A stretch of 64,000 nt of DNA from Phyllobates terribilis (taxonomy: Eukaryota), in assembly GCF_046119375.1 (NCBI RefSeq), contig NW_027362763.1, positions 569,780,001 through 569,844,000 of the forward strand, written 5' to 3'. The position numbers and the translations under genes are program-made. This document shows, piece after piece, positions 1-64,000 of this stretch. Below the pieces are notes generated by a model. It did no database searches and was not told the origin of the DNA. It saw nothing but the letters and a program-made list of their open reading frames with translations. Positions within the stretch are counted from its first letter, which is position 1, and the number at the start of each line of letters is the position of its first letter.

Positions 1-2442
1 TCAAATAGCCCTTACACAGCCTGGAGGTGTGTTTGGGGTCATTGTCCTGTTGAAAAATAAATGATGGTCCAACTAAACGCAAACCGGATGGAATAGCATG
101 CCGCTGCAAGATGCTGTGGTAGCCATGCTGGTTCAGTATGCCTTCAATTTTGAATAAATACCCAACAGTGTCACCAGCAAAGCACCCCCACACCATCACA
201 CCTCCTCCTCCAGGCTTCACGGTGGGAACCAGGCATGTAGAGTCCATCCGTTCACCTTTTCTGCGCAGCACAAAGACACGGTGGTTGGAACCAAAGATCT
301 CAAATTTGGACTCCTCAGACCAAAGCACAGATTTCCACTGGTCTAATGTCCATTCCTTGTATTCTTTAGCCCAAATGACGCGCCCCCAGAGCCGTGGGGT
401 ACTCGGCTGCCGGGCCTATGGGTGCTGGTGGGGGATATCATGGTGGCTGGCCCGGTCCGTGGCCCAGGGCGGTCAACAAAAAGAAAGGGGAAATTGGGTT
501 TTGGAAGTGTTCGTGACGCCACCTGTGGAATGCGGCCAAAGGGAGCCGCCGCTGCGGAGCAGTCCTCTGAAGCTGATGTTACTGCAGCAGGGATGGTATG
601 GCTCTCCACAGGAAGAGCTAGCTCCAGGGCAGTGTAGGGGTTGTTGGTTGCGCTGGGCATTGTAGTGCAGGGGGGGGAGATGACGCAGGTGAAATAATGG
701 ACTGAGGCAGTGCGGTGCAGTCATCCGAGTCTTTACTCACAGTTGTTAAGTTCCTCAGGTTGCACTGTCCAGCTTACAGCCTCCCACGTCGTGCTGAGTT
801 CACCAGAACGAGGGTTCAGCTCTTCCTCAGGTAGTTTAGGAGTATCTGACGGAACCCCGCTTTCTTGTGTTCCTCTCTCTAGACCGTCTTGATGCTGGGT
901 CTTCTCCCTCCTGCCCTGCGCTTCCCCACTCTCAGTCCCGCTCGGGTGCTCTGAAGTCCCTCCCATCTAACTGGAGTTCCCGGACCTGCTTGACCCTCAC
1001 AGAGATTAGAATGAGGCTTTGGCAACTGAACTATATAAGCCAGAAGCCTCCGGTTTTCCCAGCCGAGACTTGAAATAACACGGCTGGTCCAGGGGCCGGT
1101 CCCCTTCTTGCGGCCTACGATCCATCTGTCTTCAGACAGATTCGGGGCGTACGGGTGCCGTCCTGCACTCGCCGTACCCCCTGGGATCCCTTTAACAGAA
1201 CGGAGCCTACTCCTCTGCTCCCCTCCTGGGCCTCTAAGACTGGGCCCTACTTGTGGAGCAGAGCTCCTAAGAGACTCTGCTCCCCGACTGACTGTCCTCT
1301 CTCACTCAACTGTTCTGCCACCCTAAGATGGCTTCCCTTTTTATACCTACTACTATGGTGCTCCCCTAAACTACTTCCTCCACCCACACCCACTACTGGT
1401 TCCCCCTACCTTTGGGTTCCCCCCACTCCAGCCAGGGTCAGGGCTCAGCAATGCGCATGCATCTTGCCCTTCCAGCCGGCCTGGAGCAGTGTAGTGTTGA
1501 ATGCGGGTGTTGGGGTTCTGGGCAGCACTCCCTTCTCACCTGAGAGAAGGAGACACCACACCTCTGGGTGAGGTGCAGTACCTCTGTGGCGAATGAACTC
1601 TCAGGGGCGCCACACAAACAAGTCTCTTCTGCTTGTTGCCTGTCCTTAGCAGTGGTTTCCTAGCAGCTATTTTACCATGAAGGCCTGCTGCACAAAGTCT
1701 CCTCTTAACAGTTGTTGAAGAGATGTGTCTGCTGCTAGAACTCTGTGTGGCATTGACCTGGTCTCTAATCTGAGCTGCTGTTAACCTGCAATTTCTGCTG
1801 GCTGGTGACTCGGATCAACTTATCCTCAGAAGCAGAGGTGGCTCTTGGTCTTCCTTTCCTGGGGTGGTCCGCATGTGAGCCAGTTTCTTTGTAGCGCTTG
1901 ATGGTTTTTGCAACTGCACTTGGGGACACTTTCAAAGTTTGCCCAATTTTTCAGACTGACTGACCTTCATTTCTTAAAGTAATGATGGCCACTCATTTTT
2001 CTTTACTTAGCTGCTTTTTTCTTGCCATAATACAAATTCTAACAGTCTATTCAGTAGGACTATCAGCTGTGTATCCACCTGACTTCTGCACAACACAACT
2101 GATGGTCCCAACCCCATTTATAAGGCAAGAAATCCCACTTATTAAACCTGACAGGGCACACCTGTGAAGTGAAAACCATTTCCGATGACTACCTCTTGAA
2201 GCTCATCAAGAGAATGCCAAGAGCGTGCAAAGCAGTCATCAAAGCAAAAGGTGGCTACTTTGAAGAACCTAGAATATAAGACATATTTTCAGTTGTTTCA
2301 CACTGTTTTGTTAAGTATATAATTCCACATGTGTTAATTCATAGTTTTGATGCCTTCTGTGTGAATGTACAATTTTCATAGTCATGAAAATACAGAAAAA
2401 TCTTTAAATGAGAAGGTGTGTCCAAACTTTTGGTCTGTACTG
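1..2442 (-). mobile_element. Tc1-like DNA transposon, degenerate, truncated by the window start and split by a solo LTR at 376-1614
   Basis: Minus translation of 1-375 gives WKSVLWSEESKFEIFG...GGGVMVWGCF...FIFQQDNDPKHTSRLCKGYL. Start codon ~2028. Terminal repeat CAGTACAGACCAAAAGTTTGG (rc) ends at 2442 next to TA. Stops are present. Confidence 0.9.
376..1614 (-). mobile_element. Gypsy-type solo LTR (family A)
   Basis: Minus-strand termini TGTGGCGCCCC...GGGGGCGCGTCA. 4-bp TSD CAAA at 372-375 and 1615-1618. The flanks rejoin as contiguous Tc1 sequence. Homologous to 26341-27566. Confidence 0.92.
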
Positions 2443-8521: not shown

Positions 8522-9617
8522 TGACGCGCCCCCTGGGCCGTGGGATACTCGACAGCCGTGCCACTGGTTGCCGGGGGATATCACGGTGGCTGGCCCGGTC
8601 CGTGACCCAGGGCGGTAAGTAAAAAGGGGGAGATTTATAGGGGATTTGGGAAAGTGTTTGTGACGCCACCTGTGGATTGCGGCTAGAGGGAGGCGCCGCT
8701 GCGGAGCAATCCTCTGGAGCTGGTGTTACGGCAGCAGGGATGGTGTGGCTCTCCACAGGTAGAGCTTGCTCCAGGGCAGCGTGGGGTGTAATGGATGGTG
8801 GTGCAGGGGAGAGACGGCAGGACGGTCCCGGAGGAAAGACGGACACTCACACGGGGGTAAGCTTCAGTACCTTTACTGGTGGTGTTGCCGGCACGGTCCA
8901 GGGTACTCCAGGCGAAGGGCACACTTTTGGACTCTCTCCCCAGTGAGCGGGTATAGGGCCTCCTGATCCATTGCTTTATTCTCTAACCTTCTGACCTGCC
9001 TGGAGCTAGGCCTAGCTTGGTTACTGTCTCTCTTTGCACCTGCTGACCAGGTGGTAGGGCCTTCTCTTTGGAAATCACTCTCCCTGGACGCTGGGACCTC
9101 CATGACTCCTAGCCCTGGTACTATAATCAGTGTTTGGTGAACCTGGGACCTGTAGTCCTCCAGGGGTTCCGGTGGTTCCTACTGGGTATAAAGGGTCCCT
9201 GTAGGCGAGGACCCGGTGTCCGGTATATATATCGGGGTGAGCCTGGTATGCTCCTCTGCCCCCTTGCTACTTCTTCCTTCTCCTCTCTGCCTTTGGCCCA
9301 CTCAAGGCCCTCACTAGGCTTTCACACGTGCTGTAGGCCTTGGCTCGCCTAGGCACAGCAGCCAGCTCGCTGCCTCTTCACTGCTCTCTGAGCGTCAGCA
9401 CGCTCTCTGCTCAACTCTGAGCTGTGTTCCTCTCTGTCTCTGAACACTAAACTGAGCTGCCTGGCTCCACCCTCTCTATATATATCCCTAACGGGCTCCC
9501 TCTGCTGGTCTGAGGTGGTAGGGTGGAGGTGTGTGAATGTGTGAGGGCCTCTTGTGGAGACGTCTGTCCATGCACCCTTCTGGGTTCTGTGGTACCTCTG
9601 CACAGCAGGGCGCCACA
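8522..9617 (-). mobile_element. Gypsy-type solo LTR (family A-like)
   Basis: Minus-strand termini TGTGGCGCCC...GGGGCGCGTCA. TSD CATG at 8518-8521 and 9618-9621. Confidence 0.9.
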
Positions 9618-10343: not shown

Positions 10344-10352
10344 CCCTTTCTC
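10344..10352 (-). promoter_or_regulatory. Copia polypurine tract
   Basis: GAGAAAGGG immediately before the 3' LTR start TGTTGG on the minus strand. Confidence 0.75.
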
Positions 10353-10364
10353 AACAATAAGGAC

Positions 10365-14687: not shown

Positions 14688-14701
14688 CTGGGCCCATAAC
14701 C
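14688..14701 (-). promoter_or_regulatory. Copia primer-binding site complementary to the anticodon region of tRNAi-Met (half-tRNA priming)
   Basis: GGTTATGGGCCCAG directly follows the 5' LTR end. It is the reverse complement of CTGGGCCCATAACC in vertebrate tRNAi-Met, the PBS type known from Drosophila copia. Confidence 0.85.
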
Positions 14702-15015
14702 TGTCGCAGAGTGCATCTTCTTACAGTCACCACTGTACTTACGAAAGCTTCAATCAGCAAGATATCTTGAGTAAACAGTATTTACTTCATACTGGTTAAA
14801 CATGAGATACAATTCAGTGTCACACAGTCAGTGTGCTGCTGACATAACACATTCAGGAAAAAAAAAAGAAACATAGGAAGTAAGAAACAACCAACAATTG
14901 AGAACTTTCCTCCCACCATTACAGCAAACATATAACTTTGCACACTATCGCCATCTGCTGTCTGGTTAGTATAAAGTCCTCCTTTCACTTATAATAAGTC
15001 CTAATCTGTTGCATA

Positions 15016-16061
15016 TGACGCGCCTCCTGGGCCTGTGCTGTGCAGGGGGATACCCGGAGCCTGATCGCTGGGGGTTGTAGTCCTCCGTGGCGGTGACCCG
15101 GTCCGTGCCCAGGGCGGTCAAACCAGTGGCAGTCTGAGTGTGATAACAATGTCCGACTATGCCACCCGTGGATTGCGGTCAGTGGGGACCGCCGCTGCGC
15201 TGCCGACCGCTGAGGCTGATGTTGTTTGCGCAGCCGAGTAAGGGATAACTCCCCACGGGAGAAGTATTGCCTCAGGGCAGCTAGTGTGGATGATGGGAGT
15301 GACGGTGTGAGCGTCCCAGTAGTAATGGTGCTGGTGCGGCGATGAAACACAGAGACGTGTGGTGCAGTTCAGGGTCTTTACTGATGGTATAACACAGACC
15401 CTCCCGGGAGTACTGGTTAGCAGTAGGGGCCTGGTCAGTCTGTAAGCAAGTAGGATCTCCCCTGGCCAGGTGGAGTTGTAGGCCTCCCCGACTATCTGCA
15501 CTCTTTCCTGGCTACCTTGCTCTATGCAGGTAGAAGTAGCCCACGTCCCTGAGTATACCGTGTGGTGCTCACCCGTATGGCCGGTGACTTGGGGCCTTCC
15601 GTTAGCCTTCACGATGGCGGTGCTGGTCCCTTGCTTGTGACCGTGCCTCCGGGCTTCTAAGGCCAGAGGACATGGAATCCCCTGCCGGTTGGATTCTGCT
15701 GCTGGACCTGGATGTCCCCACAGCCTCGGACTCCGTGTCCGGGTTTAGTGTCTTCAACCAGGGCGAACTCTGCTCAGCTCCAGCCCCTGGTATTCAGCTA
15801 CTGTTCCTACAGAGCTCCTAGTTCTTGCTTTCCCTCTGTCTGCTGTCCTCCAGACCTGACTGTGTCTCTGTCTGGGACTTCACTCCAGGCTCTGACTAAC
15901 TTAATCCCGCCCCAGACCCAGTTTATAAGGGCAGATTCCTCCCCTCCCAGGTCTGGGTGGGCCGTGTTGCATGCTTAGGGCTCCTGACCAGAGAAACCTC
16001 CCACTTACTCTCAGACATAATATTTCTATTACTGTGGCAACCAGACCCCTGGGGTGCCACA
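15016..16061 (-). mobile_element. Gypsy-type solo LTR (family B-like) inserted inside the Copia 5' LTR
   Basis: Minus-strand termini TGTGGCACCCC...GGCGCGTCA. TSD CATA at 15012-15015 and 16062-16065. The remaining 8 bp of Copia LTR (TGCCAACA) follow. Confidence 0.92.
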
Positions 16062-26324: not shown

Positions 26325-28778
26325 CAGTGGCTTACGAAAGTGTGGCGCCCCTGAGGGTTCAGTCGCCACAGAGGTACTGCACCTCACCCAAAGGTGTGAT
26401 GTCTCCTTCTCTCAGGTAAGGAGGGAGTGCTGCCCGGAACCCCAACACCCACATTCAACACTACACTGCTCCAGGCCGGCTGGAAGGGCAAGATGCAATG
26501 TGTTTTCCTGCTGAGCCCTGTCCCTGGCTGGAGTGGGGGGAACCCAAAGGTAGGGGGAACCAGTAGTGGGTGTAGGTGGAGGAAGTAGATTAGGGGAGCA
26601 CCATAGAAGGAGGTATATAAAGGGAAGCCATCTTAGGGTGGCAGAACAGTAGGAGAAGTTAGTCAGTCAGGGAGAAGAGGGGCCTAGTGATAGAGGCCCA
26701 GGAGGGGAGCAGAGGAGGAAGGCTCCGTTTTAGTAAAGGGATCCCAGGGGGTACGGCGAGTGCAGGACGGCCCCCGTACGCCCCGAATCTGTCAGAAGAC
26801 AGAGGGATCGTAGGCCGCAAGAAGGGGACTGGCCCCTGGACCAGCCGTGTTACTTCAAGTCTCGGCTGGGAAAACCGGAGGCTTCTGGCTTATATAGTTC
26901 AGTTGCCAAAGCCTCATTCTAATCTCCGTGAGGGTCAAGCAGGTCCGGGAACTCCGGTTAGACAGGAGGGACTTCAGAGCACCTGAGCGGGACTGAGAGT
27001 GGGGAAGCGCAGGGCAGGAGGGAGAAGACCCAGCTTGAAGACCGTCTAGAGAGGAACACAAGAAAGCGGGGTTCCGTCAGGTGCTCCTAATCTGCCTGAG
27101 GAAGAGCTGAACCCCTGCCTGGTGAACGCAGCATGACGTGGGAGGCTGATACCGGTACAGCGCACCAGTGGAACTTGCATAAAGAACTGTGAGTAAAGAC
27201 TCGGATGACTGCACCGCACTGCCTCCATCCATTATTTCAGCTGCGCCATCTTTCCCCCTGCACTACAACGCCCAGCACCACCCACCATCTACACTGCCCT
27301 GGAGCTAGCTCTTCCTGTGGAGAGCCACACCATCCCTGCTGCAGTAACATCAGCTTCAGAGGACTGCTCCGCAGCGGCGGCTCCCTCTGGCCGCATTCCA
27401 CAGGTGGCGTCACGAACACTTCCCAAAAACTACAAACCCCTTACAAATAACAAATCCCCTTTTTGTTGACCGCCCTGGGCCACGGACCGGGCCAGCCACC
27501 GTGATATCCCCCACCAGCAACCATAGGCCCGGCTGCCGAGTACCCCACGGCTCTAGGGGTGCGACAAAAATATTCCCCCCTTGGCTTATTATTTGTTACA
27601 CTACAACCGGTGTTTAAATATTTTTGTTATCCAATTTGTGTGTGATGCATCAGCACTAGTCTAAGTTGGTGAAGTGAAGTAAGAAAAATGTAGGCATAAA
27701 TTCAATTTATGGGATCAAGAGAGGGCCGCACACCAACACTCTCAGGAGGGCATCAGAGGGCTAGCACAGAGCCCAAAGATAACCCTGAAGGCGCTACAGA
27801 GTTCCCAAGCAGAGACTGGAGTATCTGTCCATACGACCACAATAAGCTGTACACCCCATAGAGGTGGCCTTTATTAAAGAGTGCCCAGAAAAAAAGCCTT
27901 TACTTACACACAAAAATTCTAAGGCTCATTTTTAGTTTGCCAAAAGACATGTGGGAGACTCTCCAAATGCATGAAGGAAGGTGCTGTGGTCAGATGAGAC
28001 CAATATTTAACTTTTTGGCCATCAAGGTAAACGCTATGTCTGGCACCAAACCAACACAGCTCATCACCCCAAGAACTCCATTCCCTAACTTAAACATGAT
28101 GGTGGCAGCATCATGCTGTGGGGATGTTTTGCGCCAGCAGGGACAGGGAAAATGGTCTGAGTTGAAGGGAAGATGGATGGTGAGAAATACAGGGAGATTC
28201 TTGAGAAAAACTTATTTCAGTCTGTCAGTGATTTGAGACTGGGACAGAGGTTCACCTTCCAACAAGACAATGACCCAACGCATACTGCTGAAGCAACACT
28301 CGAGTGGTTTAAGGGGACACATGTAAATGTTTTGGAGTGGCTTAGTCAAAGCCCAGACATTAATCCAATTGAGAATCTGTGGTCTGACTTGAAAATTGCT
28401 GTTCACCCAAAGAAGCCATCTAACTTGAAGGAGCTGGAGCAGTTTTGCCTTGATGAATGGGCAACAATCCCAGTGTCAAGATGTGGAAAGCTCATAGAGA
28501 CTTATCCAAAGCTACTTGCAGCTATAATTGTCGCAAAAAGAGACTCTACAAAGTATTGACTCTGGGAGGGAGGATGAATAGTTATGCACACTGAAGTTTT
28601 CAGTTATTTTGTCCACTTTGTTGTTTGCTTCACAGTAAAAAGAAAAGCAAATGTTCACAGTTGTAGGCATGTTCTTTACATGAACTGATGCAAACCCTCA
28701 AAAAAACTGAAATTCCAGGTTGTGAGGTAGCAAAACATGAAAAATGCCAAAGGGTGTGAATACTTTCACAAGCCACTG
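26325..28778 (+). mobile_element. Tc1-like transposon (DD34E), degenerate, left TIR split by a solo LTR
   Basis: TA-CAGTGGCTTACGAAAG|TATTCCCCCCTTGGC and rc CAGTGGCTTGTGAAAGTATTCACACCC-TA. ORF 28173-28559 has FQQDNDPTH...SPDINPIE with 34 residues between D and E. Confidence 0.9.
26341..27566 (+). mobile_element. Gypsy-type solo LTR (family A)
   Basis: TGTGGCGCCCC...GGGGTGCGACA. TSD AAAG/AAAA (one mismatch). Homologous, in inverted orientation, to 376-1614. Confidence 0.9.
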
Positions 28779-36630: not shown

Positions 36631-38746
36631 TATAAGCAGGTACCAGAACGTAACAGCAGAGACACAGGCGGAGCAAAATTATATTTCTTTTATTTAACAA
36701 CTAATATTAATTGTAAAACATGTATTATATGGTAACAATTGCTTTACAATGTTTGATAGTAAAATAAGCAGTAAATCACATAACAGAATAAATTATCAGA
36801 ATACACTAGAATTCAGGGGCTGGTAGTTTAAAATGATCTACTGGAGGGAAGGAGAACTAGATTGTCATTAACTATACTGGGTGAGGGGCAGTCTTTTAAA
36901 GCTTTGGCAATACTCTGTTCCTATCACAACTCGCTGCCTGTTTCCCCTGTAACTCTCTATCCACTTTTGCAATGTTGGCATCTGGTGTCTGCTGGTCCCC
37001 GTCTGACTACTGTCTTTCCCTCTATCCGGGCCCGGTACCATATGTCTCTTTCAGAGGTAACGGCCGGTCTCGCGTGTCCTTCCTGGTTGCCAGCCCGACT
37101 GTGAATCTCTGATCTGACGCCTCCGGAGCTTCTGCAACGTCCTGTCACTGGTGCACACGTCTGAGAACCGTGCCGCCGCATCATGTTTCCGTTCTGTCGA
37201 CCGACGTTAAGGTTCCTCACCCGAGTGACTAGCGTCGCTCAGATCTTTGGGGCTTGACTGTCGACGTCTGCACTGGGAACCTAGACTGGCGTCGCTCAGG
37301 TCTTCGGGGCTTGACTGTCGACGTCTGGGTGGATAAGTGTGGCACCCCGAGGGCTCGGTTGCTACAGAGGTATCGCATCTCAGTTAGAGGTGTGGTATCT
37401 CACTTCCAGGTAAGGATGGAGTGTGGATCAAGACCCTGACGGCTGCATGCATTACACCACATTTCCGGGGGACAGCTCGACGGTGCTCCCAGCAGCGAGC
37501 ACGACAGACCATGTCCCTGGCTGGAGTGGGAGGGAGGGAACACCCAGAACAGGGGGAACCCAGTAGTGCAGGAGCAGAGAGGAAGCAGTTCCTGGATGCA
37601 CAAGAGAGAGATATAAAAGGTGGGGACCATCTTAGGGAGTGAGTTCTGTCAGAGGAGAAGGCAGGGAGCAGAGCTGCTGCATGGGCTCTGCTCCCTGGGC
37701 AGGCCTAGCACAGAGGCCAGAGCCTGAGGGAAGAAAGAAGGGGAGCAGGGAGGCTCCAGGAACACCGAGGAAGGAGGGACCCCAGGGGTGCAGAATGGTC
37801 AGTAGCCACTGCACGCCCGAATTCACCTGAGTGGAGGGGTCAGGCCGCAGAAGGGGAACCGGATCCCTAAATTGATGGAGGAGAAACTACACTCAGCCAA
37901 GAACCGGAGGTTGCGACCATTCATTGGTGCAGCCCCCTGCTAAACCTTATAGGAAGGCACCACATAGGGCCCAGGGAAAACGGCTGGCACGTTATCCCGA
38001 CAAGGTCCGAGGCAGCCGGACAGAAGTGAGGTCACTGGTGGGGTATGAGAGGCCAGAGAAAGGAAACATAAAGGGGCCCTGTGAAGCGCTTCTAAATTAC
38101 CTGGTGGTTGATCGAGCCCCTCACCTGGTGAGCGCAGCACGGCTCGGGAAGTCCTTGCTGACAGAAGTGACCTGGATAACAACTGTGAGTAAAAGACCCT
38201 GGACTGCATCATTGGACTCTGTGTGATTACTGCTGCGCCTGTACCATCACTCCCATCCTCCACTTACACTGCCCTGGGGCTACACTCCTCCCGTGGGGAG
38301 TTATACCATTCCTGTGCTGCACACCAACACCAGCCTCAGCGGCCTGCTTGCAGTGGCGGTCATCCCTGACCGCAATCCACGGGTGGCGTAGTCGGACATT
38401 CAAAACACTGATAAATAGACTGCCACAATTTGGTCTGACCACCCTGAGCCACGGGATCGGGTTGCCACTACTACCCCAGCATCGTACAGAAGCCCGGTTC
38501 TGGGTGCCCCACGGCCCAGGGGGTGAGTCATAAGCGGCACTTTTCTTCCTGACAGGAGCACTGGACACTGCTGTTGCTCCTCCCATATCTCTCTTCGGCA
38601 TCAGAATCACCTCAGAACTTGCACACGTGCTGTTTTTCTCCACAGATCATTTCCCTTACAACAATGTACCTAGAGTCCTGATCAAACTGCTCCCCTCTGC
38701 CACGCCGCCATGCTGTTCTGGTTCCACAGTGCCTTGTCTCCTTACA
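36631..38746. mobile_element. Solo LTR (~920 bp net, TGTAAG/CTTACA type) interrupted by another solo LTR
   Basis: TSD ATAC at 36627-36630 and 38747-38750. Termini TATAAG (TG mutated) ... CTTACA. Short internal duplication at 37228-37327. Confidence 0.72.
37338..38530 (+). mobile_element. Gypsy-type solo LTR (family B)
   Basis: TGTGGCACCCC...GGGTGAGTCA. TSD TAAG at 37334-37337 and 38531-38534. TATAAAA at ~37613. 3' part homologous to the LTRs of the 47228 element. Confidence 0.92.
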
Positions 38747-45882: not shown

Positions 45883-46605
45883 CAGGGGCGTACCGTACAT
45901 AGAGGCAGCCCATGCAGCTGCTATGGGGCCCCGTGAGACAGGGGGGCCCGATGTGAAACAACATCAGACCCCTCCATCCCGCATCACAATCCTAAGGATG
46001 CAGATACTGTTGAAAACAAACAGGCTCGTTCAGAACCACCAGAAACGCTTAAAAAACACATGGTAGAAGGCCTGCCATGTTCCCCAATGATAATCCCCAT
46101 GTGCTGTGCACATGCTGCGGAAATTTCCGCTGCAGATTATCATTGCGGAAAAAAATGCAGCACTACCAATTATTTTGCGCAAGTGCTGCGTTTTCACCGC
46201 CATAGACTTGCATTAGACCGCATGGATTATGCATCACTGTATATGTAGATGCGCATTCCATGCGTTCTAATGTGCGGATGGTACCCATGTCTAGAGAAAA
46301 GGAGACTCTCCTCCGGACCCTGGTACCATAGAAACTGTAAAAAAAAGAATAAAATAAAAAATAAATATATACTTACCTTCTGGCGGCTCCTGCTGCACTC
46401 CTCCTTGCTTGCTGGCAGTTCGCAATGTACTGAAGGACCTGCGCTGACGTCAGAGTCATGTGACGGATCACGCAACGCTGACGTCGGCAGGTCCTTCAGT
46501 CTACTGCTGTCGGCAGCCGGGACAGTGAAGCAAGACAGCGCGGGCCATCGGAGGGTAAGTATAGATTTATTTTTTTAGTTTTTGACATTTTCTCGGGTCA
46601 CACTA
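45883..46605. mobile_element. Left part of a hAT-type MITE into which the DD37E element inserted
   Basis: Begins CAGGGGCGTAC. The interior resembles other GC-rich MITE interiors in the window (e.g. 34430-34670). The right end is not seen. Confidence 0.5.
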
Positions 46606-47360
46606 CACTGTGTTCCAAATTATTATGCAAGAAGTGTTTAGGAGTGATAAGGTAAGAATTTTTTTGTTTGTCAGTTAAACTCATTGATGGTGATGTGTGT
46701 CATGGCTCTTTATATCACTGTAAGCAATTGCAGACATCTGTGCTAGATAGTTTGGCAGGTGTGTCCAATGAAAGGCAAGACTACTTAAGAAGGCTGTCCC
46801 ACATTATTAAGCAGCCTACATTTTCTGTCAAAATGGGAAAGAAAAAGGATATGTTGGCTGCTGAGAAGCAACAAATTGTGGAGTGTTTAGGTCAAGGCAT
46901 GACTACAATCAACATTGCCAAGACACTTCATCGTGATCATCGCACAATCAAGAAGTATGTAGCTGATTCACAGTACACACGTGTGCGTGCTGATAAGGGA
47001 AAATTGAGGACTCTTTCCTACAGGCAATTACGTCAGGTTAAAAGAGCAGCAGCAAAAAAGCCTTGTCATAGCAGCAGACAAGTTTTTGAAGCTGCTGGTG
47101 CCTCCAACGTCACCCGAACAACAAGATGCAGGGTCCTTCAGAGGTTTGCAGCTGTGCGTAAGCCATCCTGTCGACCTCCTCTATCCACTGTACACCAGCA
47201 GAAACGGCTCCAGTGGGCCAAACAATATGTGTCACCCTGGCCTGGATGCCACAAGTGTAATTAAAGCTGTGTCTGAGAGCAAGGGGGCCCTTCTCTAGTC
47301 AGGGGAACATTAGCATGCAATGCCTCCTGTCTCAGGCCAGTAGGGGGAGCTGGCTGCCCC

Positions 47361-47368
47361 TATAAAAG
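47361..47368 (+). promoter_or_regulatory. TATA box of the Gypsy 5' LTR
   Basis: TATAAAAG; the 3' LTR has TATTAAAG at the same position. Confidence 0.55.
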
Positions 47369-48273
47369 CTGGTGCTGGGGGCAGGGTTAGGGAGAACTTG
47401 ACGGCCTGTCTCAGGACTGAGACTTGTCCCAGAGCAGAGCAGGGACAGACAGTTGCACTGCACCTAAGAGGAAGTGTGGCAGGAGGAGAGCCACAAGCCA
47501 GAGACAAGAGGCGAAGAGAGCCTGTCTTGGCAGAAAGAGGACTTAATTTACCAGACTTTGGTGTCTGAAGCTGGAAGGATTCCACATCCCCCAGCAGATA
47601 ACCAGTCCGCAAGGGACTGTATATTCCTTGGCCTAAGAAGCCTGGAGGCCCTGCCACAACCGAAGGGACCAGTAAAGCCGTACCAGGCTGGGAGCAGAAA
47701 GGAACCCACGTCGCAGGCCATACAGGCGGGAATACACGGAAAGCTCGGAAACGTGGGCTGTTACCCTATAACGAGGAGATAGCCAGAAGGAGCGCAGAAA
47801 GCACGGTAGGCCTACACCCTCACCCTGACCAGGGCCAATTTCCCCGTTGCTCTCAAACATCCAGGTCCCCTCCTAGCTGGGACTGTTTATGGGTCAGTTT
47901 ACCTGTTTCAGTAAAGACCCTGGACTGCAACCTATTGTCTGTGTGCTCCTTCGCGCCTCCAGCACTACCGGTACTGGGACTCTCACCACCATCACTCCCA
48001 CCATCCATTATACTGCCCTGGGGCCGCACTCTTCCCGTGGGGAGTCATACTACCCTAGCTGCACACCTCATCAGCCCCAGCGGTCTGCATGCAGCGGCGG
48101 TTCCTAATAACCACAATCCACGGGTGGCGTAGTCGGACATAATCAACAACACGTAACGGACTACCACTGGCCTGACCACCCTGAGCCACGGAACCGGGTT
48201 GCCACTACTACTCCCATCGTTCCCCCTATTGCCCGGATCCGAGTGCCCCACGGCCCAGGGGGCGAGTCAGCTT

Positions 48274-48291
48274 TGGCGTAGTCGGCAGGAT
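48274..48291 (+). promoter_or_regulatory. Gypsy primer-binding site, tRNA-Ser (AGA/UGA type)
   Basis: TGGCGTAGTCGGCAGGAT starts after a 4-nt spacer (GCTT) from the 5' LTR. It is the complement of the 3' end ...AUCCUGCCGACUACGCCA of vertebrate tRNA-Ser (recalled, not looked up). Confidence 0.85.
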
Positions 48292-48716
48292 TTCGTGCCC
48301 GCAACCACCGGGTACTGCATGCCTGAAAAAGACTTTTGTAACTTACCTGTGGCGAAGTTTCCCGCCGTCCGGAGTCGTTTCCCGCCATCCGGAGCCGATT
48401 CCCGCCATCAGACGCCATCTTGGACCGTTTCCCGCCATCTTCTGCCGTCTTCCCGCCATCCGCAGCTGCTTCCCGCCATCGGACGCCATCTTCAGAACGC
48501 CGAGCAGGAAGAAGAGGGGCGTGGACGCCGAAAGCGCGCGAGACCCGAAGCTCCGCCCCACGCACCGACGCTGCGCAAGGTCCTGGAAGGGAGAGAGCAA
48601 TGCTGACGTCATCAGGACGCGACGCAAGGTCCTCGTCCAGAGCATCAGCAGCGGAGCCGCGACCTACAGATGAGGATCGTCGGAAGGTAGGCCACGCTTA
48701 ACTAGGGGGGAGGAAG

Positions 48717-49709
48717 ATGTCGGACACAGAGGCACCCACTACCACCAACGCAGCTGCAGCAGCAGTGATGCCCTTTTCCCTGCCCTACATCCCTGGAGCG
48801 GCCTGGCTGCCCAAGTACTCAGGGGAGCCCCATGCCCTAACTGACTTTAAGGAAAGGCTGTACAGTTTGTTCCAAGTTTACCCCCTGACAGAAGAACAGA
48901 AGGTCAGCATACTAACAGGGCAGTTAATTGGCGCAGCCCAAAGGGAGGTAAAATCATGGCCCACTGAGGAGAAAAGGACTGTGAAGGGTATTCTGGCCCG
49001 GCTGCGGGGTACCTTTGACACACGTACCTTCGCTGAGATTAAAATGAGGTTCTATGGATGTAAGCAGCGGGCACAGGACAGCATCAGAGACTATGCCCTA
49101 AATCTGCTGGAAGCCTTGAGGGCTATTCAACAAACTGACCCTGGCAGTGTGCAGGAAACGGATAAGCTGCTAACAGAACAATTCATAGAAGGTCTGCTGT
49201 CTAGCGCCCACAAGGCCCAACTGCGCCTCATGTTCTTTCAGAACCCCGACCTGACCTTTGCCCAATTTAAGGACAGGGCCATAAGGGTGCTCCGTGAATC
49301 TGCAACCAGTGGCGCTATAAACCCCCGGCGCCCTGCTCTCACCTACCACCAGGAGGCGGCGCCCTCCTCTATGGACTCCGTGGGGACTGATGCACAGGCC
49401 CTGAATCAAGCCCCGTCGAAAGACCTGCACCACCAAGTCCTGGAGCTGACCAGGAGCGTCACGGTGTTGACCAGGACCGTCCAGGCATTGCAAGTGGACC
49501 CGTCAAGACCCATCGAGCTGGCTTCAAGTCCGGAGGATGTCCCGTGGCGTCGACAGAGGAGGATCCCGTCGTTCCGAGGGAGGCCCACAGACCGCTACGC
49601 AGAGGATGGACAGCCCATTTGCCGTCGGTGCAACCAGCCCGGACACATTTCCAGGTACTGTAATTTAAACGGGTCCAACCTGGGGCAGAGGGCCAACCCC
49701 CAGGCATAA
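48717..49709 (+). CDS. gag: Gypsy Gag, 330 aa, open reading frame intact
   Basis: WLPKYSG capsid-like start and C-terminal CRRCNQPGHISRYC (CX2CX4HX4C) knuckle. Confidence 0.92.
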   Translation: MSDTEAPTTTNAAAAAVMPFSLPYIPGAAWLPKYSGEPHALTDFKERLYSLFQVYPLTEEQKVSILTGQLIGAAQREVKSWPTEEKRTVKGILARLRGTFDTRTFAEIKMRFYGCKQRAQDSIRDYALNLLEALRAIQQTDPGSVQETDKLLTEQFIEGLLSSAHKAQLRLMFFQNPDLTFAQFKDRAIRVLRESATSGAINPRRPALTYHQEAAPSSMDSVGTDAQALNQAPSKDLHHQVLELTRSVTVLTRTVQALQVDPSRPIELASSPEDVPWRRQRRIPSFRGRPTDRYAEDGQPICRRCNQPGHISRYCNLNGSNLGQRANPQA

Positions 49710-49724
49710 GATCACCAGGCCCTT
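49664..49724 (+). promoter_or_regulatory. -1 programmed ribosomal frameshift signal (T TTA AAC plus predicted pseudoknot)
   Basis: The heptamer is in gag frame. The -1 frame is open into pol. Stem CCTGGGG/CCCCAGG starts after an 8-nt spacer. Confidence 0.8.
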
Positions 49725-52700
49725 ATAATTGGCGTTATAAGTACTTTGGGGGGCGCCCGGTTTTACCCGTGGTGCTGGACGGTATCCCCATGAGCGCCTT
49801 GCTGGATACTGGGTCGCAAGTAACCACTATCCCTTATGTACTTTTTAAGCAGTATTGGACTGATGCTGATATCACACGGTATCCAGACAGTAACTTGAGC
49901 ATCATCACCAGTAATGGCTTACCCGTGCCGCAGATGGGGTTCAAGGAGATGACCATTAAGATTGGTAAAGTTGAACTGCCGGCACAGGGAGTAATTATTG
50001 TGGACATTGACCGTCGTGAAAGTCACCCTAAAATAACTGTGGGTACTAATGTAATTGAAAATTGTCTTTCAGAGGTAAATGTAATTCTACAACAGGTGGC
50101 GGTGAATGCTAGTTCCAGCCAACAGAGAGTCCTCAACAAGGAGATAAAAGCCCTGATGAGACGGCAGCAGGTAGAACTGTCTGGTGGTGAGATCGGTAGC
50201 GTAAGACTGAGTGACCCATTCGCCATTTCCATGCCTCCCAAAAGTGAAATGATGATCTGGTGTCGGACTGCAATCGGGTTGAGAGGTAGGGACTACCAAG
50301 CCATGGTAGAATCCGTGTACACAGACAGCAGGCCCACCATTTTGACAGCCCGGGGGGTGGTTGATGTCCGTCATGGGAGGGTGCCCGTCCGCATTCTCAA
50401 CATCGGGGAGAGGGAAGTACACTTACCCAGGTACGCTACACTCGCCAAACTGTTTGTTGTCGAACACAAAGCCATCAGGGCCGTGGAACCCTTGCCTCCA
50501 TCTCCACAGGCGGAGGGTAATGGCTCCCAGAAACAAAAGGAGGACTGGTGCCAGAAACTCCATGTGGGTGCTGACTCCACTCCCCTGCACCAAAAACAAG
50601 GAGTCTACCGGGTGGTACAGGAGTACGAGAGAGTCTTTAGTAAGCACCCGCTAGACTTCGGCAGAGTAAAGGGGATAGAACACCACATCCCCACAGGGAG
50701 TCACCCACCAATAAAAGAGAGACACAGGCCTGTACCCCCTGCACATTATCAGAACGCCAAGGGCCTGCTAAGAGAAATGAAAGAAGCTGGGGTTATTAGA
50801 GACAGCTGTAGCCCCTGGGCAGCCCCCTTGGTTCTGGTCAAAAAGAAAGACGGCACCATGAGAATGTGCGTGGACTATAGACAAATCAACCGTATCACCC
50901 ACAAAGACGCATATCCGCTGCCTAGAATAGAGGAGTCTTTAGCTGCACTAAAATCAGCTAACTTCTTTTCTACTTTGGACCTTACTAGCGGGTACTGGCA
51001 GCTTCCTGTGGCAGAGGCTGACAAGGAGAAGACCGCCTTCACCACCCCGATGGGACTGAGTGAGTTCAACTGTATGCCCTTCGGGCTCTGCAACGCACCA
51101 GGGACCTTCCAGAGGCTGATGGAATGCTGTCTAGGGCACCAAAACTTCGAGACGGTCCTCCTTTACCTGGACGACGTGATCGTCTATTCGAAGACCTACG
51201 AGGACCACCTAAAGCACCTGGCCGAGGTGTTCGAAGCCCTGGCAGGCTATGGCCTGAAGGTGAAACCATCGTAGTGTCACCTGCTGAAACCAAAGGTCCA
51301 GTATCTAGGGCACGTGGTAAGCGCGGAAGGAGTGGCCCCCGACCCTGACAAGGTCACGGCAATCAAGAGCTGGCCAAGCCCCTCGAACATCAAAGAGGTG
51401 AGACAGTTTCTCGGGTTGGTAGGCTACTACCGAAGGCTCATCCCCGGGTTCACTAAGATGGCAGCTCCTATGCAGGACCTCCTGATCGGACAGTCTAAGT
51501 CCAGAAGTCAAAAGCCACCCTTCAAGTGGGATAAGCCGGAAGAGGAGTCCTTCCGCCAGTTGAAGATGGCCCTCACGGGGGATGAGATCCTGGCCTACCC
51601 TGATTATGGTCAGCCTTTCATTCTCCACACAGAGGCCAGTAATGTGGGACTGGGAGCCGTACTGTCCCAAAACCAACAGGGCAGAGAACGGGTGATCGCG
51701 TACGCCAGCCGGAAGCTGAGGCCCACCGAGAGGAACCCGGAGAATTACAGCTCCTTCAAGCTAGAATTCTTGGCGGTGGTGTGGGCCGTGACGGAACGCT
51801 TCAAGCATTACCTGGCCTCCGCAAAGTTCACAGTGTACACGGACAGCAACCCATTGACACACCTAGACAATGCAAGACTGGGTGCCCTAGAACAGCGGTG
51901 GATGGCCCGTCTCTCCAACTATGACTTCGTGATCAAGTACCGGGCAGGCAAAACCAATGCCAACGCGGACGCCCTATCAAGAATGCCTCACTTACCTGAA
52001 GGTGACGAAGACCCAGAAGAGATGGAGGAGGTAGAACTCCCCGCGTTTCACCGGTATGGAGCCGCTCAATACTCCCACCGCGTGAAAGAGGAGGATCTAA
52101 CAACCGTGATGATCAATCCCCTACCTCACCACAGCTGGGCCGAGACCCAAGATAGCGACCCTGCCATCCGTCTGGTGAAAGAACTGCTGACCCAGGAAGA
52201 CGCCCGCATGGATCAGGATGCTCCAGAGGAAGCCAAGCAGCTATGGAAGGAGAAGAGCAAGCTGTTCCTCTACGAAGGCAAGTTGTGCAGAAGGATTGTC
52301 AACCACCGGACGCACGAGCTGACCTGGCAAGTCGTGGTTCCAAGGCGGGATGCAGCTATGGTCCTGGGAGCTTACCGGGACACTTTGGTTGGAAGAAACT
52401 GGAGTTCCTGCTAAGAGGAAGGTTCTTTTGGGTCGGCATGAGAGGAGCTGTAGAAAAATGGTGCAGAGACTGTGGCCCTTGTCACCTGAGGAGGAAGGAC
52501 CGCACCAGCCAGAAGACACCCTTGAGGCCCATCGTCACCACGCAGCCTCTTGAGCTGGTAGCTCTGGACCACGTCAAATTGGCTCCAAGCCGGTCAGGAT
52601 ACATCTATGCCCTGACAATCGTGGACCACTATTCCCGTTTTCTAGTGGTGGTCCCGGTAAAGGACTTGACAGCCCAAACAGCGGCCAGAGCCTTCCAGCA

Positions 52701-53823
52701 ATATTTCTGCCGTCCACACGGGTATCCGGAACAGGTCCTGACAGACCAGGGTCCAGCGTTCGAGGCTGAAATCTTCCAGGAGTTCTGCAACCTCTATGGC
52801 TGTAAGAAGATTCGTACAACGCCTTACCACCCACAAACCAACGGGATGTGTGAGAAGATGAACAATATAGTCATTGATCTCCTGAAGACGTTGCCCCTGG
52901 AGGAACGCAGCCTGTGGCCAGAAAAACTGCCGGACCTGATAGACCTATACAACAATATCCCGGTGAATGCTACAAACTGCACCCCGGCTTACCTAATGCG
53001 AGCTAGACCAGGTAAGCTGCCCGTAGACCTGGAGATGGGAGTCTTAATACCTGAGGACACCTCCCCGGATGCGGACTGGGATACGGAAAGGCAACTGCAG
53101 TACAAGAAGGTACAGGAGAGTGTGGAGAGGAGCCTGGCCCAGGTGAGAGAAAGGCAAGAAAGACTCTTCAACCAACACGCCCCTGCTGGTCCCCTAGAAC
53201 CTGGTGAGCAAGTCCTAAAGCGAAAAAGAAGGCTACATAAGTTGGACGACCAGTGGGAAAGGGAACCCTACACCGTACTGCAGTCTGATCACGACAACCC
53301 GAAGGTGTGCGTGATCACCAAGGACGGAGGAGAAACCACTAGCACCGTCTCCAGAGACCACCTCAAAAGATGCCCCGAGCAACTCCGTAGTGCAGAAGAG
53401 GATCAGAGTGACCTTGAACCCGCAGAGGACAAGGAAGAAATGATCAGCACCGTTCTCGGAGAGTTCCCTCAGTCCTGGACTCACATAAATGATGCCATAG
53501 TGCTACCTGTCCTGCATTTCCTGCAACCGGCACAGCAACAACCAACACCAGAGCCGGAAGGTGAAGAGGAGCAAGCGGTTCCAGAGGCAGAAGAGCCTGA
53601 ACCAGCAGCCCAGGAGAATCAAACCTCTGCTGACAGTGAGCCTGCCATGCCTGCGGTAAGCCAAAGAACCCGCAGACAGCTGCCTGCCCTACCTGTACAC
53701 CCAGCTGGTAGCTGTACCCCTAACGCTAGTGGGAAAAGCAGAGTCAGTCCACCACCAGACAGTGGGTTAAGGAGGTCAACCAGGAGCACAAAGGGGCAGA
53801 TACCCGCTCGCTGGAGAATATAG
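49664..53823 (+). pseudogene. pol: Gypsy Pol (PR-RT-RNaseH-IN) with in-frame TAG at 51272-51274 and a frameshift near 52375
   Basis: LLDTGSQ, LDLTSGYWQ, MPFGLCNAP, YLDD, TEAS (catalytic D changed to E), GHFG..CRDCGPC, ALDHV/TDQG/CEKMN integrase triad. Confidence 0.95.
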
Positions 53824-54200
53824 GATGTACTAAAATTGTAAATAACCCTGTTGCCAAATGTTGAATCGTTTGCAAAGTTACATGCATGTTTGGTAATACT
53901 CTGTTTCAGTTTCTTGCAGCTACCGTAAGGACTCACAGGTTATGGACTTTTTATAACCAGGACCTTGCATGGACTGCGTTCGGAGCCTAACCCAGGAATG
54001 AACTAAGACTGTGAAGGACTTGGGGTAGGACAGACCCCCACCTGGTTAAGGCTCCCCGTTGTATTGGTGATATGGACACCCGGTCACAGGCCACACTGTG
54101 ACCTTAAGAACTCAATTTGTGCGTTGTCTGTCTATTAATGTTTTATTGTTATGCATATTGTCTTTGTTTACTGTTTAGTCCTGGAGTACTAAATTTCACT

Positions 54201-54209
54201 AGGGGGGGA
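54201..54209 (+). promoter_or_regulatory. Gypsy polypurine tract
   Basis: AGGGGGGGA abuts the 3' LTR TG. Confidence 0.85.
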
Positions 54210-56864
54210 TGTGTCACCCTGGCCTGGATGCCACAAATGTAATTAAAGCTGTGTCTGAGAGCAAGGGGGAGGTTCTCTATTCAGGGGAACATTAGCATGC
54301 AATGCCTCCTGTCTCAGGCCAGTAGGGGGAGCTGGCTGCCCCTATTAAAGCTGGTGCTGGGGGCAGGGTTAGGGAGAACTTGACGGCCTGTCTCAGGACT
54401 GAGACTTGTCCCAGAGCAGAGCAGGGACAGACAGTTGCACTGCACCTAAGAGGAAGTGTGGCAGGAGGAGAGCCACAAGCCAGAGACAAGAGGCGAAGAG
54501 AGCCTGTCTTGGCAGAAAGAGGACTTAATTTACCAGACTTTGGTGTCTGAGGCTGGAAGGATTCCACATCCCCCAGCAGATAACCAGTCCGCAAGGGACT
54601 GTATATTCCTTGGCCTAAGAAGCCTGGAGGCCCTGCCACAACCGAAGGGACCAGTAAAGGCGTACCAGGCTGGGAGCAGAAAGGAACCCACGTCGCAGGC
54701 CATACAGGCGGGAATACACGGAAAGCTCGGAAACGTGGGCTGTTACCCTATAACGAGGAGATAGCCAGAAGGAGCGCAGAAAGCACAGTAGGCCTACACC
54801 CTCACCCTGACCAGGGCCAATTTCCCCGTTGCTCTCAAACATCCAGGTCCCCTCCTAGCTGGGACTGTTTATGGGTCAGTTTACCTGTTTCAGTAAAGAC
54901 CCTGGACTGCAACCTATTGTCTGTGTGCTCCTTCGCGCCTCCAGCACTACCGGTACTGGGACTCTCACCACCATCACTCCCACCATCCATTATACTGCCC
55001 TGGGGCCGCACTTTTCTCGTGGGGAGTCACACTACCCTAGCTGCACACCTCATCAGCCCCAGCGGTCTGCATGCAGCGGCGGTTCCTAATAACCGCAATC
55101 CACAGGTGGCGTAGTCGGACATAATCAACAACACGTAGCGGACTACCACTGGCCTGACCACCCTGAGCCACGGAACCGGGTTGCCACTAGTACTCCCATC
55201 GTTCCCCCTATTGCCCGGATCCGAGTGCCCCACGGCCCAGGGGGCGAGTCAAATACATGAAGACTGACTTCAAAACTGTTTTGTTCACCGATGAGTGCCA
55301 TGCAACGCTCGATGGTCCAGATGGATGGAATGGAGGATGGCTGGTTGATGTACACCCCATGCAAACACGGCTACGGCGCCAACAAGGAGGAGGCGGAGTA
55401 ATGTTTTGGGCTGGAATCATGGGGAGAGAGATTGTCGGCCCCTTTAGGATCCCTGAAGGGGTAAAGATGAACTCCATAATGTATGATGAGTTTCTCAAAC
55501 AGCACTTCCTGCCATGGTTCAAGAAGAAGAACCGTGCATTCTGCAGCAAGATCATTTTCATGCATGATAATGCACCGTCTCATGCTGCACATAACACATC
55601 TGCATCTCTGGCTGCTATGGGCATAAAAGGGGACAAACTTATGGTGTGGCCCCCATGCTCTCCTGACCTCAACCCCATTGAGAACCTCTGGAGCATCATC
55701 AAAAGGAGTGTCTATGATGGCGGGAGGCAGTTCACATCTAAGCAACAGCTCTGGGAGGGTATTCTGTCCTCATGCAAAACAATTGAAGCAGAAACCATCC
55801 AAAACCTGACAAATTCAATGGACGAGAGAGTTCAGAAGCTCCTTTCGAACAAGGGGTCCTATGTGCAAATGTAACATCACCTAGAATAAAGTTTTGAGTT
55901 GAAAACTGTTTGATTTCAGTTTGTAATAACCTACTAATGCTTATAATTAGAGATGAGCGTTGTTCTACTCGAACTGTTCGCCAATCTCAAATTCGAGCTG
56001 TTTTGGGCGGTGTTCGAGCCGGTCGGCGAACACGAACAATTTGAGAAAAATTCGGCTGTTCGAGGTTATGTTCGATAACTGTTCGTGCACCAAAATCATA
56101 ACTGGATTTTTTCTCAGTAATGATGAAAATTAATGTTAATACGCAGTTTGAGTGTACAGCGGGGCGGGGGGAGGGGCAGGGGATGGATCTCTGCAGGAAC
56201 AATGAAGATCTCCATTTTTTTTTCTCTTTCCCGCATTTGCAGTGGGGAGGTGCAATCTGTCAGCCTATCAGCAGCGCACACACGGAGCGAAGTGCTTTTT
56301 TTCACACAAGCAAGGGCATGTGTGATTGGCAGTGTATGTCACATGTCCTTGCCCTATAAGACCAAGCCATTTTCCCCGTCGCCACCATTTTCTCACTGCT
56401 GCAGCTGCGTGTTAGACGGCACCGCTGTTGCTGTGTGCGCTATACCTTGTTAATTTCAAGCCAATTTTCGCACAAATATACAGATAGCTTGGGAGTAGGG
56501 AATAGTTGTGATTGCAGTCCTTTTAAGGACTAGGTTACAGCATTTCCTACGACTTTTATCAAGCAGGTCTGTGCTCTTAAATAGATAGATTGTGGGAGTA
56601 AAGACTAATTGTAATTGGAGTCCTTTTCAGGACTAGGTTACATCAGTTCCTATCAGTTTTTGCCAGGCAGGTCTGTGCCAGTGCTGTGCAAGTTTTTTTC
56701 ACAGCATTTGGCTGAATCTAGCAAAGCTAATCCTTTTTGGCCTATTGCAGAGTGTGTTAGTCAGTGGAGTAGCCTATCTGTGTTGCAAGATATACCACCT
56801 GTGTATAGAATACCAATTTTTTTACTGCACCTAGTGAAGTAAAATCTTTTGGGCATAGCATCAT

Positions 56865-57590
56865 TCTATTAGTCCATCTATACTGACCTCCATCAGGTTG
56901 CAAATTAAAAATAATTTTTTTCTGCATCTAGCTCTGAAAAAATATTTGGGCTTCTAGCAGTGTGTGGGACTTGGTCTATTAGTCCATCTATACTGACCTC
57001 CATCAGGTTGCAAATTAAAAATAATTTTTTTCTGCATCTAGCTCTGAAAAAATATTTGGGCTTCTAGCAGTGTGTGGGACTTGGTCTATTAGTCCATCTA
57101 TACTGACCTCCATCAGGTTGCAAATTAAAAATAATTTTTTTCTTCATTTAGCTCTGAAAAAATATTTGGGCTTCTAGCAGTGTGTGGGACTTGTTCTATT
57201 AGTCCTTCTATACTGACCTCCAGCAGGTTGCAAATTGAATATAATTTTTTTCTGCATCTAGCTCTGAAAAAATATTTGGGCTTCTAGCGGTGTGTGGGAC
57301 TTGGTCTATTAGTCCATCTATACTGACCTCCATCAGGTTGCAAATTAAAAATAATTTTTTTCTGCATCTAGCTCTGAAAAAATATTTGGGCTTCTAGCAG
57401 TGTGTGGGACTTGGTCTATTAGTCCATCTATACTGACCTCCATCAGGTTGCAAATTGAATAAAAAAAATTTCTGCATCTAGCTCTGAAAAAATATTTGGG
57501 CTTCTAGCGGTGTGTGGGACTTGGTCTATTAGTCCATCTATACTGACCTCCATCAGGTTGCAAATTAAAAATAATTTTTTTCTGCATCTA
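56865..57590 (+). repeat. 110-bp tandem repeat, ~6.6 copies, upstream of the hAT ORF
   Basis: Units start at 56865, 56975, 57085, 57195, 57305, 57415 and 57525 and are nearly identical. Confidence 0.95.
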
Positions 57591-57706
57591 ACCCAGCCAA
57601 TAGTTTTGGCCTAATACCACAGTTTGGCCACTCAGCTCTGCTCGGTTACCATCCATTGTTTTTTTGTGCAAACAACTCCAGAGTTGTGAATTAGTTAACC
57701 ACCAAA

Positions 57707-63608: not shown

Positions 63609-64000
63609 TGACGCACCCCCTGGGCCTTGGGACACCCGGAGCCGGACCCTTTTTGGTGGATGCTGGTGGTTGTAGTCTTCGTGGCGGTGATCCGGTTCCG
63701 TGGCTCAGGGCGGTCAAACCAGTGGCGGAACTATTTATGTGGTTTTGATGTTTAAATGTCCGACTACGCCACCCGTGGATTGCGGTCAGAGTGAACCGCC
63801 GCTACAGGGCAGACCGCTAAGGCTGGTGTTGTGGGTGCAGCAGAGCGTAGCATAACTCCCCACGGGAGGAGTATAGCCTCAGGGCAGTGTATGCGGAGGA
63901 TGGGGGTGATGGTGCAGGGCAGCAGCAGTAACGACACGGAGTCAGTGATGCAGTTCAGGGCCTTTACTCACAGTTCTTATTATCCAGACCACGTCTGCAG
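63609..64000 (-). mobile_element. 3' part of a Gypsy-type LTR (family B), running off the window
   Basis: Minus-strand end GGGGGTGCGTCA. Homologous to the U5 of the 47228 LTRs and to 15016-15380. Confidence 0.85.

Follow-up and report, generated by a model that had tools for sequence, protein, structure and literature searches.

A structured, selected cis-element matching primer tRNA-Ser in the LTRs of a Gypsy clade from Phyllobates terribilis

To our knowledge, detailed accounts of how an LTR element selects, opens and places its primer tRNA, and how it obtains that tRNA uncharged, are limited to a few retroviruses and the yeast Ty elements. The U3-R tRNA-like sequence of HIV-1 provides LTR-encoded complementarity to the primer besides the PBS. 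In bacteria, the T-box antiterminator pairs a UGGN sequence with the NCCA end of a tRNA beside a helix, over 4 bp and with the Stem I specifier needed. The HIV-1 PAS and the U5-tRNA contacts of HIV-2 are further LTR-encoded complementarities to the primer; they involve the T-stem 5' strand and the anticodon loop, and the excerpts of PMC3185550 that describe them contain no duplicate 3'-end site. In the FIV initiation complex the 5' end of tRNA-Lys3 pairs with a U5 stem-loop, and the passage of PMC3230847 that reports this (from Miller et al. 2001) includes neither a second 3'-end site nor a pseudoknot module. According to excerpts of PMC4974528, segments of yeast Ty1 and Ty3 pair with the T and D arms of the tRNA, supplementing a PBS that is short, and Ty1 requires a 5' pseudoknot for efficient reverse transcription. 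Drosophila gypsy has a second, 11-nt site for its primer tRNA, which lies near the 3' end of the genome, matches the anticodon and T stems and has no priming role in the account given in an excerpt of PMC1635307.

Here we describe an element in the LTRs of a frog Gypsy clade, found in a 64,000-nucleotide stretch of the P. terribilis genome (the window). It resembles Ty1 and Ty3 in having tRNA-binding segments beyond the PBS, and its gag has one CCHC knuckle, as the Ty3 nucleocapsid has a single CCHC (PMC4974528, excerpt). Unlike in Ty1 and Ty3, the PBS is already 18 nt long and the extra site duplicates the 3'-end complement within the LTR, and the predicted fold, in contrast to the Ty1 pseudoknot, is a double pseudoknot abutting this extra site. 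The frog site would lie in U5 and match the acceptor 3' strand, which sets it apart from the second site of Drosophila gypsy. FIV offers a precedent for contact between the tRNA 5' end and U5, whereas in the frog Gypsy this predicted pairing spans 11-12 nt and covaries with the primer switch. The likeness to the T-box is one of analogy only, as the frog pairing would cover 10-13 bp and open the acceptor stem, and the module has no Rfam match. Extended primer-template contacts are thus already known, and the new part is the duplicate 3'-end complement together with a double pseudoknot inside the LTR. No description of a second 3'-end complement set against a double pseudoknot inside an LTR was found in the literature searched, with Repbase Reports, most subscription journals and supplements outside its scope; the main text of a paper on poison-frog transposable elements contains neither 'PBS' nor 'primer binding' (PMC6278860), and 'PBS-like' in PMC4580426 refers to an ordinary PBS.

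The element at 47228-55251 is a full-length Ty3/Gypsy with two LTRs, TG...CA ends and a TSD. It has gag followed by PR-RT-RNase H-IN, a PBS matching a host tRNA, and a PPT:

47228..48269, plus strand: 5' LTR (TGTGTC...GAGTCA), 4-bp TSD AATA, 98.5% identity with the 3' LTR
47910..47915, plus strand: AGTAAA, then a GT-rich tract, a probable poly(A) signal by sequence motif
48274..48291, plus strand: true PBS, 18 nt, tRNA-Ser(AGA/TGA), 4 nt past the LTR end
48717..49709, plus strand: gag, one CCHC knuckle, weak PNMA-like match below the Pfam cut-off
49664..53823, plus strand: pol in the Gypsy order PR-RT-RNase H-IN (Pfam)
54201..54209, plus strand: polypurine tract
54210..55251, plus strand: 3' LTR with the same module and an internal site at 55107-55118

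The pol region is split over three ORFs by a stop inside RT and a frame change near the RNase H/IN junction, and the nearest gag homologues come from dendrobatid and related frogs. Contigs from four sequencing runs of three organisms span the stretch. The window also contains five solo LTRs from this clade and one LTR cut off at the window end; type B matches tRNA-Ser(AGA/TGA) and type A matches tRNA-Ser(CGA):

376..1614, minus strand: solo LTR, type A, TSD TTTG, internal site 508-521
8522..9617, minus strand: solo LTR, type A, TSD CATG, internal site 8655-8668
15016..16061, minus strand: solo LTR, type B, TSD TATG, internal site 15153-15164
26341..27566, plus strand: solo LTR, type A, flanks AAAG/AAAA, internal site 27405
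37338..38530, plus strand: solo LTR, type B, TSD TAAG, internal site 38384
63609..64000, minus strand: 3' part of a type-B LTR that runs off the window, internal site 63760-63771

An AGTAAA-like hexamer lies 196-298 nt upstream of the internal site in 8/8 window LTRs. From the poly(A) motif only, with the probable signal at 47910, we infer that the module lies in U5, so that each genomic RNA would carry one copy just 5' of the PBS. The spacer between LTR end and PBS (48270-48273 in the window) varies from 3 to 9 or more nt across subfamilies (L007-L066), and the leader between PBS and gag carries several short TTCCCGCCATC-like repeats at 48366-48440. The full element is nested in a repeat, whose two halves at 46604-47227 and 55254-55948 match one inverted copy at 61771-63088 with ~95% identity. 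The window also holds a Copia-type element on the minus strand at 10023-15017 (1065-aa ORF at 11260-14457, terminal repeats 98% identical), and at 56754-61387 a 1230-aa ORF for a hAT transposase that includes a BED finger and follows a 110-bp tandem array.

The earlier note on this DNA had claimed that all eight related LTRs of the window carry a second, PBS-like tRNA-Ser site, and this was borne out. The context sequence CRCAWTCCACRGG has exactly 8 zero-mismatch matches in the window, each immediately upstream of a site, and the sites begin 145-163 nt upstream of the LTR end, as had been stated. The type-B motif TGGCGTAGTCGG, which is also the beginning of the true PBS at 48274, was located at 48125, 55107, 38384 and rc 63760-63771, with one change at rc 15153-15164; the type-A motif TGGCGTCACGAACA was located at 27405 and rc 508-521, with one change at rc 8655-8668. 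Searching the window for TGGCGTAGTCGG with <=2 mismatches gave 8 matches against 1.72 expected, and 0/100 shuffles reached that number. The site of the full-length element is:

48125..48136, plus strand: internal site, complement of the tRNA-Ser(AGA/TGA) 3' end (CCA, discriminator, acceptor 3' strand), with no gap to the pseudoknot helix PK2

Matches to host tRNA 3' ends, as proposed in the note, were found for both types: ARAGORN called Ser(AGA) in 5/20 and Ser(TGA) in 2/20 fetched places with the type-B 3' end, and Ser(CGA) in 1/25 loci with the type-A 3' end. The match itself is real, but its fixed length of 12 or 14 nt did not hold, since the internal site complements the 3' 10-13 nt of the tRNA, with 10-11 nt in type B and 12-13 nt in type A across subfamilies. 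The upstream context was likewise described as constant; it is exact in the window but varies elsewhere with compensation, reading CAACGGG in some B subfamilies and including a CACCAG-type hairpin in some type-A subfamilies. A decay of the site at the rate of flanking U5 was not observed, and the site is kept far better than the U5 behind it. Column conservation among A and B representatives was 0.94-0.98 over the first 11 nt and 0.45-0.48 at positions 14-40, the latter computed unaligned; in the further family B' (6 rows) the values were 0.97 and 0.75. The sharp edge at 11 nt corresponds to the eleven nucleotides of the tRNA NCCA end plus acceptor 3' strand. The match reaches only 10 nt in some B subfamilies, G10 is lost in 8/28 A copies, and G15 and G16 are matched in 0-2 of 28 A copies and 0/29 B copies.

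Upstream of the internal site, a mutual-information scan of 154 complete module copies (of 188 profile matches) revealed two long-range helices and two hairpins. The predicted fold in the window copy is as follows:

48016..48124, plus strand: predicted double-pseudoknot RNA module (mutual-information scan, alignment and pair counts; RNAalifold for the nested stems)
48016-48024 with 48074-48083, plus strand: predicted pseudoknot helix PK1
48028-48032/48041-48045, plus strand: predicted hairpin, whose loop 48034-48040 pairs with 48118-48124 as PK2
48058-48062/48091-48095, plus strand: predicted stem
48097-48102/48109-48114, plus strand: predicted hairpin

The 33 pairs of five helices were paired in 96.2% of 1,799 cells (55 representatives), and double changes occurred at 15/33 pairs, spread over all five helices. 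On four of five covariation measures 0/500 shuffles were as high, and slid controls were 35-55% paired, in a test where the fold was derived from the very sequences used to score it; the fifth measure, further pair types, was not above shuffles (37 vs 38.4). RNAalifold independently recovered the three nested stems. The CCACRGG context turned out to be the 3' strand of PK2, which changes as CCTGTGG/CCACAGG, CCCGTGG/CCACGGG and CCCGTTG/CAACGGG. TGGCGT follows PK2 directly, with no gap, in 153/154 complete module copies of a profile that was itself seeded on site-bearing copies. Several unpaired bases in the module are invariant, for example A at 48052. An Rfam scan of 47200-48700 at E<=10 returned three chance matches, far under the cut-offs, with no match to the T-box model and, as a retrozyme test, none to any hammerhead model. 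HDV-like ribozymes form a nested double pseudoknot in the order P1-5', P2-5', P1-3', P4, J4/2, P2-3', with a core of P3/L3/P1.1 and a conserved catalytic C in J4/2. The module has a similar strand order but two extra helices; against an HDV-like ribozyme, this core is absent, the 3-nt linker varies (AAT, ATA, ACA, AAG, GTA) and Rfam gave no match. A CYA:TGG helix and an extra pair to the T of TGG were discarded, being unconserved (21/54 unpaired). These results indicate that a structured, selected cis-element in this Gypsy LTR is real.

Downstream of the internal site, the final ~97 nt of the LTR are predicted to fold as a long hairpin:

48173..48269, plus strand: predicted U5 terminal hairpin (TGAC...GTCA), inner stem and large open loop, from single-sequence folds of 61 representatives
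48201..48211, plus strand: loop segment complementing tRNA-Ser nucleotides 1-11, with one mismatch in this copy, which switches with the tRNA type

The loop was less paired than the remaining hairpin in 56/61 folds. Neither this complement of the tRNA 5' end nor the pseudoknot module had been noticed in the earlier note. Its complement of tRNA nt 1-11/12 reads GCCACCGTGAC in type A and GGCCACGACTGC, with wobble variants, in B', while the main B clade has GCCAC-(1-5 nt)-GACTAC. The cognate tRNA 5' end was favoured in 50/57 A and 86/88 B copies, with no loop call in 8/153; the two B exceptions are the basal copies L138 and L203, which keep an A-type segment extended by TAC and look like intermediates. 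Loop pairing averaged about -19 kcal/mol, and shuffled loops gave -9 to -11. In A and B' the pairing is uninterrupted over 11-12 bp and takes in tRNA nt 8-11, a register absent from both PBS and internal site, and the order of the loop halves matches the tRNA 5' end rather than either of these. In the main B clade a 1-5 nt bulge splits the pairing and weakens it to about -16. For the window copy the loop value was -15.5, near the -13.9 of loop/PBS pairing, and for a type-A copy it was -24 kcal/mol. The G-U wobbles of the B' loop fit pairing by the plus-strand RNA; a minus-strand tRNA mimic was rejected because these wobbles would become A-C mismatches on that strand. A PAS-like reading of the type-A loop (ACCTGTG against the tRNA T-stem 5' strand) was also set aside, as the main B loop follows the pseudoknot and not the tRNA. 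Separately, GGGCACG/GGGTACGGG in U5 can pair with CGTGCCC just past the PBS in L043, L030 and related loci, as a possible U5-leader stem that is not present in every subfamily.

A type-A PBS had been predicted and covariation of internal site and PBS proposed as a test, and both were found. Exact genome matches numbered 8,117 for the type-A PBS and 69,769 for the type-B PBS (77,886 together). Genome-wide patterns gave 58,707 concordant copies (4,123 A/A and 54,584 B/B) vs 4 discordant ones (3 A/B and 1 B/A), where the concordant copies are not independent events but go back to about two switches, which involve no more than two tRNA-Ser species; the four discordant copies look like single recombinant or mis-primed copies. 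In the first 30 PBS loci listed on one contig for each type, the internal-site type equalled the PBS type in 28/30 A and 29/30 B loci, with 3 uncalled and 0 discordant. Over all PBS copies in the fetched loci, 100 were concordant, 0 discordant and 11 uncalled, among the last L005, an unrelated LTR that uses the same PBS without the module. The internal site, the U5 loop and the PBS are thus three tRNA-matching segments that change together.

The RT tree contained the clades A1, A2 and B, and in the mostly non-coding family B' the sites are of B type while the module resembles that of A1. A tree of U5 from 68 representatives out of 132 usable copies, built after removal of the tRNA-matching segments, showed B and B' as separate clades among A lineages. 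Holding B and B' together was rejected at a borderline level (AU p = 0.040), with the B' label drawing on a structural feature inside the tree alignment. Together, the separate clades and this test suggest about two independent primer switches. Among 17 fetched B' loci pol was found in one, L201, where it is a nested type-A insertion; its place on the RT tree is no evidence about a B' reverse transcriptase, and it was rejected as such. The module profile had 188 matches in 1.08 Mb of loci, all type A, type B, or broken/partial, a biased sample in which the absence of a third primer tRNA should be read accordingly. Viral contigs gave 0 matches, and the module was not found in 78 distant metagenome Gypsy loci (40-54% RT identity).

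The internal site almost never acts as a functional PBS or LTR boundary. The full 18-mer follows CCACRGG in 3 copies genome-wide, compared with 77,886 exact PBS copies; as regards possible internal priming in these three, L067 has a full-length 3' LTR, and L068 and L069 have none in the fetched stretches. Junctions of a tRNA 3' end with element sequence were recognised in 43/51 loci read, 0/43 of them at the internal site, and several run into the tRNA past 18 nt, which identifies the host tRNA as primer. A pattern for type-A LTRs ending at CCACA had 66 matches, and none of the 30 read was TSD-bounded; the module was present in 8/30 of these truncation loci, 7 with small internal deletions that kept the rest of U5 and 1 running into an unrelated repeat. 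The small deletions (L169, L173, L179, L186, L187, L188, L191) drop the internal site and spare the module and the remaining U5, and several lie between CA repeats. Copies of the primer tRNA extending far past 18 nt were seen in L001, L004, L081, L084, L096, L097 and L154, reaching the anticodon loop in some, and L154 has three tandem junctions 3.39 kb apart. In L067 and L004 a full 18-nt PBS stands at the internal position with the remaining U5 after it, which may reflect rare annealing of tRNA at this position or a conversion with the true PBS as donor.

Many short non-coding two-LTR derivatives (L136-L151, L197-L213) have LTRs 93-99.9% identical, and this near-identity points to recent mobilisation in trans. 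The pseudoknot strand and matching site were kept in 20/20 short two-LTR elements without a gag/pol match, which argues for a cis role in mobilisation and not in translation.

To account for these features, we lean, at slightly better than even confidence, towards a model in which the U5 of this Gypsy clade is a docking platform that captures primer tRNA-Ser and opens it for the true PBS. In this model the tRNA NCCA end and acceptor 3' strand would first pair with the internal site (10-13 bp), stacking on PK2. The template bases needed next by RT would sit in PK2, and the docked tRNA would not be extended. The freed tRNA 5' strand (nt 1-11/12) would then pair with the open U5 loop, so that the acceptor stem stays open. 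Finally, the 3' end would shift to the stabler 18-nt PBS, probably with the help of CCHC Gag/NC, and priming would begin there. Computed tRNA pairing was about -25 kcal/mol at the internal site vs about -38 at the PBS; the greater stability of the PBS duplex makes the hand-over energetically allowed. Nested MFE folds, by a method unable to form pseudoknots, have the internal site largely paired intramolecularly, with values of 0.25 and 0.51 for its unpaired probability. The steps and their sequence are proposed as a model. A stronger version, in which the module covers the CCA terminus of the tRNA, chooses or generates tRNA-Ser in uncharged form, keeps the acceptor stem open by a second contact with the tRNA 5' end and hands the tRNA on to the PBS, we regard as unlikely. 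Of the explanations offered in the earlier note, the duplicate or bipartite primer site is retained for its tie to the primer tRNA, the best supported part, but not as a classical bipartite PBS or as a site used in priming. A bipartite PBS has its second segment on a different tRNA region, as the U5 loop does, whereas the internal site matches the very segment of the tRNA that pairs with the PBS and so is not one.

Alternatively, a second tRNA might stay at the internal site, or one tRNA might bridge two genomes with its 3' end on one and its 5' end on the loop of the other, in dimerisation, packaging or Gag recognition with no hand-over. The same covariation and adjacency data fit, and the non-coding elements keep the site as they would a packaging signal. 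In excerpts of the respective papers, tRNA bridges are reported in Drosophila gypsy (PMC1635307) and proposed in Ty3 (PMC4974528). However, a tRNA with a structural role would have no need to follow a change of primer, while here it appears to have done so about twice, and the excerpt on Ty3 states that deletion of its bipartite PBS did not block packaging (PMC4974528); we consider this alternative unlikely.

In another reading, which seems to us rather improbable, the internal copy never binds tRNA and acts as an intramolecular switch, pairing with the U5 loop or another anti-PBS sequence to keep it away from the PBS and so gate the primer. Such a switch would likewise covary with the PBS. 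Between internal site and loop, 6-7 bases are complementary (-11.7 and -13.3 kcal/mol), and GACTRCCAC near the site can fold back on it in many B copies; this fold-back partner, however, is missing in types A and B', and the tRNA duplexes are about twice as stable as the loop/internal-site pairing. The loop register suits the tRNA 5' end and not the internal site, and the invariant TGGC and the boundary at the end of the acceptor strand would be left unexplained.

It is very unlikely that the module senses the end of the docked tRNA or catalyses a reaction on it, for example to select or produce uncharged tRNA, or that it is a self-cleaving ribozyme. A primer requires a free 3'-OH, the module is a compact double pseudoknot with invariant unpaired bases, and the NCCA end would stack on a helix much as in the T-box antiterminator; the lack of an Rfam match and of an HDV-like core stands against this reading.

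The remaining two explanations, both raised in the earlier note, we judge extremely improbable, since the internal site hardly ever serves as the end of an LTR or as a working PBS. As a neutral fossil, the site would be an older LTR end plus PBS or a whole reverse-transcribed tRNA. The type-A CCACA-GG-TGG does look like an att site joined to a PBS, the stretch that begins with the internal site and closes with the loop has a median length of 91-97 nt, close to the 85 nt of the tRNA, and the rare copies L004 and L067 have a PBS copied to the internal position. Against persistence as a relic, CCACRGG covaries with the upstream loop, and the site is strongly conserved relative to its flanks and switches with the PBS; the whole-tRNA version was rejected, as the middle has no similarity to a tRNA complement (mean z -0.79, -0.54, 0.46). 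The fossil reading is refuted as a neutral relic but can describe the origin of the site, which may be an ancient duplication. As for a 3'-tRF target through which the element or transcripts of solo LTRs would be silenced or tuned, an excerpt of PMC12853362 has 3'-tRFs repressing LTR elements via PBS complementarity, with seed pairing maybe dispensable, but a replicating element should lose a target imposed by its host and not maintain it through two primer switches, the internal site lacks the bases that would pair with an 18-nt tRF at its 5' end, and the pseudoknot and 5'-end loop would stay unexplained.

The tens of thousands of copies and about two natural switches allow the contacts between element and primer to be mapped by covariation, and narrow them to a roughly 290-nt non-coding RNA testable in vitro. 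The module adds a large, well-supported structured RNA without any Rfam family. If the stronger version of the docking model were true, it would be a eukaryotic, retroelement-borne counterpart to the T-box sensor, and there is a small chance that the module stands for a class of its own among tRNA-handling RNAs. When the primer switched, three separate sites changed to match it, and this may be one reason for the evolutionary stability of primer identity. With every solo LTR of the family, moreover, a structured site complementary to tRNA is dispersed through the 10.6-Gb genome of the host.
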